A stretch of 64,000 nucleotides of DNA from Malacoraja senta (lineage: Eukaryota), in assembly GCA_038087875.1 (NCBI GenBank), contig CM075991.1, forward strand, positions 12,092,001 to 12,156,000, read 5' to 3'. The translations under genes were made by a program, and so were the position numbers. This document shows positions 30,301-33,300 of the stretch, piece after piece. Numbering within the stretch: position 1 is the first letter of the stretch; each line of letters starts with the position of its first letter. The notes below the pieces were generated by a model that ran no database searches, was not told the origin of the DNA, and was given only the letters and a program-made list of their open reading frames with translations.

Positions 30301-33300
30301 GGCAGCGAGAGAAATGGGGAAACATCATTGAGCATTCTAAAAACAAAAACATTATTCCAGTTATTTAGGAGCTTTAGGCTTCATCTAACCCCACATTTGG
30401 TCTGGGGATATTTAATGATTCCCAACTACGTTTCATTTTTAAATTTCAGATATCCAGCACATGCAGCTTTTTTGATTGCTTTTAGACAATAGAAATATTT
30501 CAAGTTTATTCTTTTGTAAATGGCTGGGAGCACACTCCTAAATTAATGGTTTCATCCGAGTCCAATCCTTGTTGTCCAAGTGCTATCTTGAATGCGAGGA
30601 ATCTGCTATCAAAGTTGTTTAGACATGGTTCAGACAATAAATCTTTAATTGATCAGTTTTTTTTTTAAACAATGGTTTGGTCCCAACAATTGCAGGGCAC
30701 CAGACCTTCAGAGATCAACCATGAAGAGCTGCGTTTGGAATTAACTTGAATGATACCGGAGGCAAAAAAAAGAGTAACGCAAAGATAAAGAAACTGGGAA
30801 TGTTCCCCTGCTGCTGTGATGATTAAAGTAAAACAGATCTGATAGAGTTGTTCAAAGTCACAAAGGGTTTAGACAGAGTGGTCACAGGTAAACTATCTCC
30901 AATAAGGTAGTAAAGTTAATTCAAGTCACATTTATTTATATAGCACATTTAAAAAACAACTCTCGTTGGCCAAAGTGCTTTACATTTGTTATAGGAATAG
31001 CATAAACAAAACAAACTACATACATATATACATATAGCCCTCACTCAGAGGACGTCAGGAAAGGCTTGGGAGTATAGATAAGTTTTTAGTCTTGACTAGG
31101 TAGAGGAACCACTGATTACTATTTTATGATACAAAAGCAGAAGCAACATAGGGTAAAATAATCAGGTACAAGTTACTTCGATATGAAATATATAGTCTGA
31201 ATATGAAACTGATTTAACAGTAACTTTCAAACGGGACTTGAATAGATACTAGAGAAGGAAATATTTATAGGACAATGGGGAAACTGCAAGAGAAACTGGC
31301 TAGGTCTGCCCAAGAACTCATGGGTCAAACAACCTAATTCCGTGTGCATCATTCAATCAAGTCAAGATCAGGACATAGCCAAGGGATTCGTTTTAGAACC
31401 GGCTATTCAGCTCCAGTGAGTATGTTGCATAATTATTGTTCTCATCGTCCCATAGCCTATCCTGACATATACAACCCCTGATTCTACGCCTACACCACAT
31501 GCACCCGCACCTTACCAAAGTCCTCCAGCAGGAACTCTTTCTCTCCAATGTTAAACCTGCCTGAGTTCTGAATTACAGGCAGCTCGTAGTTCTTCAGTTT
31601 GCTCAGGTTGTTCAGCAGTTGTGTTGGCTTGAGCTGATCTCTCCATTGGGTGGGGCCACTTCTGCGGGGAAATATACCAATTACAGAACCTTTATTCTCC
31701 ATGTTACTGAGAATTAGTTTACATTCCTCCACTCACTCTTACTCTCAACCAACTTCACAGCAGGCAGAGAAGAGAAGTAAATCTCCCCAGTACTTTCTGC
31801 CTCTCTCCTCAGATGGAGTTTAATCTGAGCAAGTGTGAGGTGTTGCACTTTGAGAGATCAAATGTAAGGGGAAAGTATAGAGTTAATGGAAAGACGCTAA
31901 ACAGCACTTCTTCTTCTTGTGTATGGCGTGCACAGCCTAACGTTGTAAGACAACTTGTTCTCTTTGATCTTCTGTTTGTGCACGCCAGGTTGATTGCATT
32001 CGTCGAAACAGGGTGGACCACGTGAAGGTTGCAATCTCCCACCCCCTAACAACACTGATGTTGAGAGGGACCTTTGTGTCAAAGACCATTGCTCCCTGAA
32101 AGTGGTTCCACAAATAGATAAGTGGAAAAGAAGGCATTAAGTACAAGTCAAGAAGTCATATTGCGCCTGTGTAAGAATTTAGTAAAGAGTAGAGGGGAAT
32201 GGTTTAAATGCTATGGAGCCAAGTCAGTGGATATATTTAAGGCAGAGATAGATAGATTCATGATTAGTACGGGTGTCAGAGGTTATGGGGAGAAGGCAGG
32301 AGAATGGGGTTAGGAGGGAGAGATAGATCAGCTATGATTGAATGGCAGACTTCATGGGCCGAATGGCCTAATTCTGCTCCTATCACTTATGATCTTATGA
32401 AGGTGAGAGGAACAAAATGTAAAGGAGATGCATGGGGCAACGCACACACAACACGAACATGAAGACACAAGCGCACCACACACAAAAACACACACACACA
32501 CACACAGGTGGGTACAATAGTGGCATTTAAGAGGCTTTTAAATAGGCACATGAGAATGCATGGAATGGAGGAATATGGATCACATGCAGGCAGAGGAGAT
32601 TAATTTTTTTTAATTTTTATTTTTTATTTTTATTTTTATTTTTTATTTATTAGAAGTACATTACATTACAACCACATACATTAGTACTCGTCACTTATAT
32701 CTTCTTACAATTAATGTACTCCGTTTGCTTTTTACACTAGAAAAGGGAAAGGATGAGATTGAGAGAGAAGAAAGTGAAGGAAAAAGTGAAAGTGCAGAAA
32801 ATGTGACAATAAGAAAGAACGAAGATCCTATAAGAACAAAATTAAAAACAAAGGAAAAATAGTTAAGAAATAGACCCTAGAAAAGAAGGAGAAAGAGAAA
32901 GAGGGAAAAGAGAAAAACAAATAGTTTTTATGAGCATTACGTAAATAGGACATACCAACTCTCCAACTTTCATCCCCCCTTACCTGACCTCAGTTTTTTT
33001 TTTAAGTACCTTTGCACCCTATTTTTGTAATAATTCTATAAATACAGACCACGTCAGGTGAGAGGAGATTAATTTAACGGCATCATGTTTGGCATAGACA
33101 TGTTGGACCAAAGGGCCCGTTACCGGGCTGAACTGTTCTATGTTCCATGTTCACTGTGGGCAGAGCAGCCTCTATGACCTCAACACATTGGCCCCACCTT
33201 CCATAACCACAAGTCGGCTCTTAGCATCAACTCCGCTTGCAAGGACGTTTGGCCCAATTGCACAATACTAAGGTTCCCATAACACAGAATATTGGGGGAA

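Follow-up and report, generated by a model that had tools for sequence, protein, structure and literature searches.

A putative P4-less ribozyme of the CPEB3 type at the head of an abundant short retroposon in the Malacoraja senta genome

A stretch of 64,000 nucleotides (nt) of the Malacoraja senta genome (assembly GCA_038087875.1, contig CM075991.1, positions 12,092,001 to 12,156,000), referred to here as the window, contains on its minus strand a retroposon of 138 nt whose first 54 nt very probably form a double pseudoknot of the type found in the self-cleaving ribozymes of hepatitis delta virus (HDV) and of the mammalian CPEB3 gene. This assignment is based on homology and on covariation with other ribozyme families of the same genome, in which at least about 5,500 copies of the retroposon are present. 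The reading which accounts best for the data, and in which moderate confidence can be placed, is that this P4-less ribozyme of the CPEB3 type frees the retroposon from read-through transcripts at its first nucleotide, G1, and that the reverse transcriptase (RT) of a Vingi-like long interspersed nuclear element (LINE) makes use of a hairpin and a (GAA)n repeat at the 3' end. Catalysis without the helix P4, read-through as the source of the transcript and the identity of the LINE which supplies the enzyme are the parts of this reading that we infer.

Probable ribozyme identity of the head

The minus strand from position 32045 reads GGGGTGG GA GATTGCA ACC TTCACGT GGT CCACCCT GT TTCGA CGAA TGCAATC, letter for letter as given in a preliminary description made from the sequence alone, with the C of CGAA at 32002. 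Downstream of this 54-nt head follows a body of 84 nt terminating in GAAGAAGAA at 31908. All bases of the three helices of the head are complementary, with 7 bp in P1 including a G1.U pair, 7 bp in P2 and 3 bp in P3 (Table 1), and the nested double pseudoknot of the HDV ribozymes onto which these segments had been mapped is upheld by homology and covariation. Concerning P4 the preliminary description was right about the reduction of the helix and the total length of 54 nt, whereas its 'UUCG-type stub' turned out to be a 5-nt linker, UUCGA, in which at most one U-A pair can form. In L3 and in the GU of J1/4, between which the P1.1 contact of HDV-like ribozymes would form, the head has the letters of the CPEB3 consensus. 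These positions are invariant across families, and the same contact as in CPEB3 is possible in the head of the retroposon. The C at 32002 is presumably the catalytic one.

Table 1. Positions of the retroposon, of the parts of its head and body and of its second copy in the window
Feature	Position	Strand	Basis
Full-length 138-nt retroposon, younger subfamily A	31908..32045	-	Sequence, 40 scored copies, target-site duplications of the family
54-nt P4-less HDV/CPEB3-like ribozyme head (predicted)	31992..32045	-	Rfam alignments, leave-one-out model, covariation
Predicted cleavage site 5' of G1	G at 32045	-	Homology to HDV-class models
P1 5' strand GGGGUGG, G1 at 32045	32039..32045	-	Pairs with 32010-32016, 7/7 including G1.U
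P2 5' strand GAUUGCA (pseudoknot)	32030..32036	-	Pairs with 31992-31998, 7/7
P3 5' strand ACC	32027..32029	-	Pairs with GGU at 32017-32019
L3 UUCACGU	32020..32026	-	Same as L3 of the Rfam CPEB3 consensus and of families F1, F2, F4 and F5
P3 3' strand GGU	32017..32019	-	Sequence, covariation
P1 3' strand CCACCCU (older subfamily B: CCGCCCU)	32010..32016	-	Sequence, subfamily comparison
J1/4 GU	32008..32009	-	Invariant in the 11-sequence alignment; same in the CPEB3 consensus
5-nt linker UUCGA in place of P4	32003..32007	-	Rfam alignment: 3 nt versus 16 in CPEB3
J4/2 CGAA, putative catalytic C at 32002	31999..32002	-	Aligned with CPEB3 CGAA and F. prausnitzii CUAA
P2 3' strand UGCAAUC	31992..31998	-	Sequence, covariation
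Body hairpin, 11-bp stem (31977-31987 with 31924-31934) and large loop	31924..31987	-	Inverted repeat
(GAA)3 tail	31908..31916	-	Sequence
Upstream copy of imperfect target-site duplication, GTGTTGTTAG	32046..32055	-	Sequence
Downstream copy of imperfect target-site duplication, GTGCTGTTTAG	31897..31907	-	Sequence
Second, older copy, subfamily B, 140 nt, 88.6% identical; head 61797-61850	61797..61936	+	Sequence comparison

When a core of 68 nt was compared with 4,227 Rfam families at E <= 10, only two of them matched and both are ribozymes of the HDV type. These were the CPEB3 ribozyme (RF00622; 13.3 bits, E 0.19) and HDV-F-prausnitzii (RF02682; 15.9 bits, E 0.26), which scored below threshold and aligned from end to end with the cleavage-site G on 32045, so that the search with HDV and CPEB3 models proposed in the preliminary description did lead to this class. 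The letters GGGG, UUCACGU, CCCUGU and CGAAU are common to the head and the Rfam CPEB3 consensus, and the match of L3, GU and CGAA to CPEB3 given in the preliminary description is confirmed by the printed consensus. As the head stays below the 35-bit threshold and has no P4 it falls outside RF00622, and it is best described as a probable P4-less relative within the wider HDV-like class. A further line of evidence came from a leave-one-out covariance model (R1), built from nine other ribozyme sequences of this genome with no sequence of the retroposon included and with P2 left out of the modelling. In an unfiltered scan of the entire window the top match of this model was at positions 32045-31992 (23.1 bits, E 4.8e-4), followed by the head of the second copy, 61797-61850 (14.8 bits, E 0.062), all other matches having E >= 0.5; these E-values are rough due to a short calibration. 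A descriptor of the double pseudoknot based on topology only was also tried and was rejected as evidence for being too permissive.

The other ribozymes were found by searching with RF00622 the window's own assembly (1.94 Gb, 6,182 contigs). Thirty-nine of the 60 matches listed exceeded the 35-bit cut-off, the best with 64.2 bits, a first-look count of 102,231 being rough, and no match past the cut-off was seen in 14 control prokaryotes. Twenty-six RF00622 matches were examined with short flanks and fell into five groups, F1 to F5. An alignment of 11 sequences from seven families or subfamilies, namely the retroposon's subfamilies A and B, one F1 sequence and two each of F2 to F5, was then made with MAFFT without knowledge of the structure, and the helices nevertheless fell into register. 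The pairs specified for the analysis were those of P1 and P3, those of P2, entered as a pseudoknot, and the four outermost of P4. Standard pairs were present in 93.0% of the cells compared to 74.1 +/- 1.7% in shuffled alignments (as high in 0 of 500), a percentage inflated by the choice of representative copies, which had partly been made with a parser rewarding pairing and counts against the figure, while the two-sided changes between families are not inflated by it. Such two-sided changes occurred at 15 of the 21 pairs (as high in 1 of 500 shuffles) and in 47 cells versus 14.3 +/- 3.0 in the shuffles (0 of 500), and when the partners were moved by 1-3 columns as a slide control only 39-50% of the cells were paired. 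The shuffle control ignores relatedness; neither relatedness nor the parser has a bearing on the slide control or on changes of both partners from one family to another.

P2, the pseudoknot helix which a covariance model cannot represent, had two-sided changes in six of its seven pairs and 94.8% of its cells paired. Positions 5-7 of P1 covary across families, and two of the three P3 pairs show two-sided changes, the other families having GCG/CGC or GCA/UGC at this place. At P1 positions 5-7, in P2 and in the whole of P3 the retroposon has sequences peculiar to itself, the first base of P2 being that of most families and the last that of all, and its three helices differ from those of every LINE head found, yet are fully complementary. 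Fixed across the families are L3 (TTCACGT; TTCTCGT in F3), GT and CNAA, the last of these being read at J4/2 as CGAA, CTAA or CCAA. P1, P2, P3 and P4 thus covary strongly across the ribozyme families of this genome.

The retroposon family and its relatives in the genome

A first look at the genome with the 138-nt retroposon yielded 2,593 candidates, the 40 scored among them being 96-100% identical over query positions 1-138 or 2/3-138. For the second copy, of subfamily B, 2,961 candidates were obtained, the other 39 scored copies having 94-95% identity. In subfamily B the P1 helix likewise pairs at seven of seven positions, with U5.G. Copies differ mostly by CpG decay and also in the length of their (GAA)n tail. 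Exhaustive exact counts gave 3,879 occurrences for a head 22-mer containing no CpG and 5,528 for a 22-mer taken from the body, with 0 for each control, and from these two counts it follows that most copies retain the head. Together with target-site duplications (TSDs) at 47 of 60 examined copies these numbers bear out the preliminary description of the element as a non-autonomous retroposon.

The 5' ends of the copies are concentrated at G1, the pattern whose absence had been named in the preliminary description as an argument against a ribozyme. Among the 60 examined copies 53 start with GGGG, and the remaining seven deviate solely within the first one to four bases; all 17 pairs and the core are intact in 44. 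The TSDs were scored from a length of at least 7 nt and were seen in only 0-2 of the 60 copies when the upstream probe was shifted by 50-300 nt. They measure 7-16 bp, and in 44 of the 47 copies having one the duplication directly abuts G1 without added bases. No enrichment of an extra G at position -1 was found among the examined copies. The copy of the window carries the (GAA)n end and the imperfect TSD which had been noticed before, as (GAA)3 at 31908..31916 and as GTGTTGTTAG versus GTGCTGTTTAG, the latter pair lying outside the strict definition of a TSD and not counted among the TSD-bearing copies.

Several side observations were made on these copies. The last TSD base before G1 was T in 22 of 30 subfamily-B copies versus 8 of 30 subfamily-A copies (junctions L031-L060), and this preference in subfamily B could reflect a preference for the target or for the second-strand nick, or microhomology. 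Two copies, L063 and L066, share a deletion of element positions 25-33, which removes part of L3, P3' and P1' and is predicted to destroy the ribozyme; they may represent a dead sub-lineage or independent events. Other abundant repeats recur beside and around the insertions (e.g. L004, L006, L010, L045, L046 and L068) with the motifs ...GAGTTACTCCAGC... and ...GGTGTCAGGGG.TATGGGGAGA.GGCAG..., and the retroposon is frequently located inside such repeats. The idea of a circular RNA similar to retrozymes was dropped because the copies are dispersed single insertions with TSDs and are not arranged in tandem.

As for promoter and coding content, the claim that the element has neither A and B boxes nor an open reading frame (ORF) stood up to inspection. 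ARAGORN detected no tRNA-like gene, no tRNA, 5S, 7SL or small nuclear RNA family of Rfam matched in scans of the window, of 401 nt and of the 68-nt core, and the best matches to the A box and the B box of RNA polymerase III (Pol III) carry three mismatches each. All six mechanical ORFs of at least 20 amino acids which overlap the element extend into unrelated flanks. Of the features of a classical short interspersed element (SINE) the short length, the lack of an ORF, the TSDs and the 3' tail of LINE type are present and the head of Pol III type is absent, for which reason the element is not a classical SINE. It is a short non-autonomous 'head plus tail' retroposon without long terminal repeats (non-LTR) of the kind that LINEs spawn. 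The hairpin of its body, whose stem joins element positions 59-69 with 112-122, has a folding energy of -23.3 kcal/mol (z -3.63), and equal stability was reached in 0 of 200 shuffles.

The best RF00622 matches elsewhere in the genome are located at the 5' ends of repeats as well, and the upstream flanks of the copies are unrelated up to G1. The head of F1 (seven copies, scoring 44.7-64.2 bits on RF00622) reads GGGGATC AA GGTAGAA GCG TTCACGT CGC GATCCCT GT, followed by a P4 of 8 bp and by CGAA TTCTACC, and some 30 nt further on an ATG opens a reading frame. One F1 copy of about 3.1 kb (L085:112-384 and L088:1-2836; G000:C1:86602702 to about 86605810) has the ribozyme at its first base and the TSD TCACAACCT on both sides. 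Pfam domains in this copy are Exo_endo_phos_2 (5.9e-9), an apurinic endonuclease (APE), and RVT_1 (1.3e-33), there is no match to RNase H, a Cys/His motif follows the RT and an interruption between the APE and the RT portions splits the reading frame in two. Its 3' end is ...GACACGAAAAGAAGAAGAA and its tail ...ACGAAAAGAAGAAGAA, of the (GAA)n type as in the retroposon. The copies of this LINE are 97-99% alike, hence as young as the retroposon. In at least six F1 copies the head and the 3' motif are 3.07-3.2 kb apart according to a comparison of coordinates. A 17-mer of the F1 head occurs 11 times and a 3' 21-mer 192 times, which points to the usual 5' truncation of LINEs, unlike the situation in the retroposon. 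By its size, domain content and 5' end LINE F1 appears Vingi-like, and in a comparison by eye its 5' end closely resembles positions 2-74 printed for Vingi-2_Gav in the supplement of PMC5786205.

F2, F3 and F4 are further variants with a full P4. The F3 and F4 copies (L090-L093, L095, L098 and L100-L102) were noticed to be older, decayed CPEB3-like ribozymes in which about 35-45 nt of common sequence follow the ribozyme (ACCACACCACACACTG... or ACCACGCTACACTAACTAACCAAC...), beyond which the copies no longer agree; these groups may represent either very short ribozyme-headed retroposons of about 100-110 nt or fragments. F5 (eight copies, L097, L099 and L103-L108; e.g. L106:161-213:-) is a second family of short ribozyme-headed retroposons. 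A 22-mer of its core was matched exactly 1,483 times, its length from G1 through the tail is 169 nt in L106, the one copy measured, its TSDs abut G1 (L103, L105 and L106) and its tail is ...GATAAGAAGAAG. In place of P4 this family has five nucleotides, UUCCA or UUUCA, followed by CCAA, and its P1, P2 and P3 are different and compensated, P1 reaching six of six pairs only when its register is moved by one position (G1-C, U unpaired) and at five of seven in the standard register. As F5 combines the same replacement of P4 with other helices, P4-less forms have either been propagated twice or diverged under constraint.

5' end formation and the alternatives

A cycle can be proposed in which a copy of the retroposon would be transcribed within a longer host or read-through transcript and the double pseudoknot, consisting of P1, P2, P3, the contact of L3 with J1/4 and the C at 32002, would cleave this transcript 5' of G1. 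The product would be an uncapped RNA beginning at G1, its 5' end buried in a compact fold. The 3' hairpin together with ...ACGCAA(GAA)n would then be used by a (GAA)n-tailed LINE encoding APE and RT for target-primed reverse transcription, and copying over the full length to the cleaved end would yield insertions which start at G1 and have TSDs of 7-16 bp. An Ingi/Vingi-like LINE is a plausible partner. With regard to this partner the preliminary description was right in so far as a LINE with APE, RT, a CPEB3-like head and a (GAA)n tail does exist; the search for an autonomous element sharing both ends which it had proposed found no LINE with the head or the 3' body of the retroposon.

A number of results weigh against the proposed reading. 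Among RNA data the indexed runs do not contain the element. About 6% of a raw poly-A RNA sequencing run, X24, which is from the same study as two runs containing the element, was read and mapped on positions 31850-32110 at >=90% likeness; its sample label (I) differs from that of the best DNA run (F), and poly-A libraries preserve neither exact 5' ends nor small RNAs. Of 571 reads placed, 568 lay only partly on the stretch, 96% continued into dissimilar sequence, and the mates pointed in both directions. Loose ends just past 32045/32046 with diverse continuations, i.e. read-through across G1, were seen in 196 + 37 reads, and no position where many molecules begin or end was found in these data, G1 included. 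The reads therefore stem from long transcripts containing the element, or else from DNA contamination, and the majority of such molecules are uncut at G1. Efficient cleavage is thereby made less likely for bulk copies, to which these data refer, as distinct from master copies, small RNAs lacking a cap or the species of origin.

Other adverse points concern the identity of the head and of the partner. With Rfam at gathering thresholds no ribozyme was matched in the whole window, nor was one matched at E <= 10 in 401 nt around the head, and the scores obtained with the 68-nt core are below the gathering scores of 35 (RF00622) and 44 (RF02682). A loose double-pseudoknot descriptor with G.U allowed everywhere matched about 20 sites that are not of low complexity and have a P2 of at least 7 in 234 kb on both strands, so the topology alone is not rare, and the nested fold energy of the 54-nt head is ordinary (z +0.59, calculated by a program without pseudoknots). 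Covariation across families is evident; across copies of the retroposon, where the preliminary description had called for it, no true compensatory change was found; the difference between A and B in P1, U-A versus U.G, is a CpG transition. Regarding the partner, pattern searches of the assembly detected no LINE sharing the head or the 3' body of the retroposon. The head without the body gave two matches, an indel copy and a copy broken after the head, the tail junction without the head gave 19, all of them indel copies, 5'-truncated copies of the retroposon or unrelated, the body-end pattern gave 0, and the terminal 18-mer with a different upstream sequence gave 10, which appear to be deletion variants. 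A comparison of the retroposon with the LINE F1 copy by blastn yielded a match of the last 11-15 nt only. The 5' end of the retroposon is of the same ribozyme lineage as the LINE heads and identical to none of them.

Two observations from the sequencing runs stand apart from these arguments. In about a third of the X24 reads position 32001 is changed, giving CUAA or CAAA at J4/2 instead of CGAA. Many copies were present in three of the four runs mapped, which carry different organism labels (35 contigs under label A, 8,253 contigs under F and 571 reads under I), and one contig in the fourth, labelled B; the family thus occurs in more than a single sample.

The abundance of read-through in X24, with no starts at G1, and a head far below the Rfam thresholds would be in line with a LINE-derived ribozyme which in its P4-less form no longer cleaves usefully. 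Its fold would have been kept for another role, such as protection of the 5' end, recognition by the LINE protein or an internal promoter like Pr77 of L1Tc, and G1 would be the start of transcription. A fixed start of transcription likewise gives precise 5' ends, and in L1Tc the same 77 nt, Pr77, are both promoter and ribozyme (PMC3383444, PMC3185411). This explanation, the main rival of the preferred reading, nevertheless appears unlikely, though it deserves to be kept in mind, since all three helices of the retroposon differ from those of the LINE heads yet stay complementary, and since the invariant positions are the single-stranded L3, GU and CNAA, a pattern to be expected of catalysis and not of protein binding or a promoter. 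The missing A and B boxes, the missing extra G at -1 and the 44 of 47 TSDs abutting G1 with nothing added are further points against it. Far less probable still, to the extent that it was rejected, is a classical Pol III SINE or a retroposon derived from a small RNA with an HDV-like fold arisen by chance. Length, copy number, precise 5' end and microsatellite tail would suit a SINE, and the commonness of the loose topology and the ordinary fold energy would suit chance, but there is no tRNA-like gene, the sole Rfam matches are two HDV-type ribozymes, the model built from other families detects the head at E 4.8e-4, and the head is colinear and covaries with ribozymes that clear the Rfam cut-off for CPEB3.

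A third alternative touches the partner only and leaves the ribozyme as it is. The retroposon might have been mobilised by another or by an extinct LINE, of which it would be a simple internal-deletion derivative with both its ends. This is conceivable but on the whole rather doubtful. The lack of a LINE in the assembly with its head or 3' body and the resemblance of only about 15 nt of its tail to LINE F1 argue for it, and bipartite non-autonomous LINEs usually carry both parental ends (PMC5786205). On the other hand LINE F1 is equally young and has the same type of tail, and as subfamily A is young (96-99% identity) a working source of the enzyme exists or existed very recently, which counts against this alternative. 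Release of the retroposon by its own ribozyme and mobilisation by a Vingi-like LINE continue to be preferred here. If the P4-less form proved inactive, the finding would shrink to a well-documented new family of head-plus-tail retroposons.

A possible origin of the CPEB3 ribozyme and comparison with known systems

Judged from its sequence the head of the retroposon is of the same lineage as the mammalian CPEB3 ribozyme and the heads of the compact Vingi-like LINEs of this genome. The LINE heads have the catalytic core in common with the CPEB3 consensus, and F3 in addition shares with it helix sequences at positions shown here to be variable, for instance P1 GGGGGCC and P3 GCG/CGC in F3 and F4, and P2 of F3, which is GCAGGA compared to GCAGAA in CPEB3 with a compensated partner. 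Since these letters are shared though free to vary, common descent is suggested rather than convergence. In the supplement of PMC5786205 positions 2-74 of Vingi-2_Gav (3,128 bp in total) read GGGGCC ATA GCAGAA GCG TTCACGT CGC GACCCCT GT, P4, CGAA TTCTGC, by eye a CPEB3-like ribozyme close to F3 and to the Rfam CPEB3 consensus. Positions 1-64 of the Vingi-4_Crp consensus given there were noticed to read as a ribozyme of the CPEB3 type as well. It is accordingly quite possible, and can be put forward tentatively, that the intronic CPEB3 ribozyme is a domesticated 5' end of the Vingi type, that its lineage is alive in this genome, and that 54 nt without P4 may be catalytically sufficient to form the 5' ends of the retroposon.

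The LINE heads, which exceed the Rfam CPEB3 threshold by a wide margin, and the crocodilian Vingi consensus, which is almost that of CPEB3, make a retrotransposon origin of the CPEB3 ribozyme directly testable by comparative genomics. A P4-less ribozyme with an evident role and thousands of copies would in addition be a natural test bed for the smallest working core of the delta type. The data point to Vingi as a ribozyme-bearing clade, and a self-cleaving 5' untranslated region (UTR) would matter for the design of donor RNAs in gene writing (PMC13708176). In this 2026 review Vingi-1_Acar is presented as a compact APE LINE which has one ORF and no RNase H and serves for gene writing together with its native UTRs; the parts drawn on here mention ribozymes only for R2. 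A literature search whose scope did not reach Kojima 2011 and Ruminski 2011, which could say so, found neither a paper linking Vingi and ribozymes nor a description of a retrotransposon origin of the CPEB3 ribozyme.

The head of the retroposon resembles the CPEB3 ribozyme (RF00622) in the order of its elements, in G1-G4, L3 UUCACGU, CCCUGU, CGAAU and the G1.U pair and in a P3 of 3 bp. It differs in having 3 nt where P4 of CPEB3 has 16 nt inside the closing pair, and in P1 positions 5-7 and the whole of P2 and P3, where the sequences are changed and compensated. CPEB3 is moreover a single intronic locus, whereas the head studied here occurs in many copies as the 5' end of a retroposon. The theta ribozymes of gut phages and other minimal HDV-like ribozymes are likewise double pseudoknots without P4. 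They are known from metagenomes and phages, where they lie next to tRNAs, and their origin and function were called open (PMC10879173); in the present case such a form would be the head of a retroposon in an animal genome of 1.9 Gb.

For R2, RTE, LOA and Ingi elements it is established that HDV-like ribozymes process their 5' ends (PMC5786205), in agreement with what the preliminary description had stated for R2 and Ingi, and Vingi is not among the six ribozyme-bearing LINE clades named in the relevant part of that paper (Kojima 2018). In R2, RTE, LOA/Baggins and L1Tc/Ingi, as in the retroposon, the ribozyme is located at the extreme 5' end with the first base following the cleavage site, and its presumed role is release from a co-transcript (PMC5786205, PMC6765202, PMC7761336). 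The carrier here is different, being an element of 138 nt without ORF, and the related LINEs look Vingi-like. ORF-less head-plus-tail derivatives are described in PMC5786205 as known only for RTE, Ingi, Vingi and R2. The R2 SIDEs of Drosophila and NARTc, RIME and SIDER of trypanosomatids also have no ORF and carry the 5' ribozyme and the 3' end of their parent (PMC3414825, PMC3383444, PMC4035085). These elements share both ends with an identified parent, whereas no parent with the same head or body was found for the retroposon, whose ribozyme is without P4 and whose insertions are dispersed and not specific for rDNA.

Vingi LINEs are compact and spawn ORF-less derivatives (PMC5786205). Within the group of SINE2-1_AMi and SINE2-1_ACar the alligator element SINE2-1_AMi carries positions 2-74 of Vingi-2_Gav and has a tail ...ggacacgaaaaaggaaagga resembling that of LINE F1 (supplement of PMC5786205), but in it the piece of Vingi is preceded by a tRNA head, while the retroposon of the window starts with the P4-less ribozyme itself. 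Non-autonomous non-LTR elements headed by a ribozyme are already known, as is evident from the R2 SIDEs, from NARTc/RIME and from the statement in a review that some non-autonomous SINEs use HDV-like ribozymes (PMC6765202). What appears to be new in the present family is a P4-less ribozyme of the delta type in an animal genome, its sequence of the CPEB3 type and an implied connection to Vingi.

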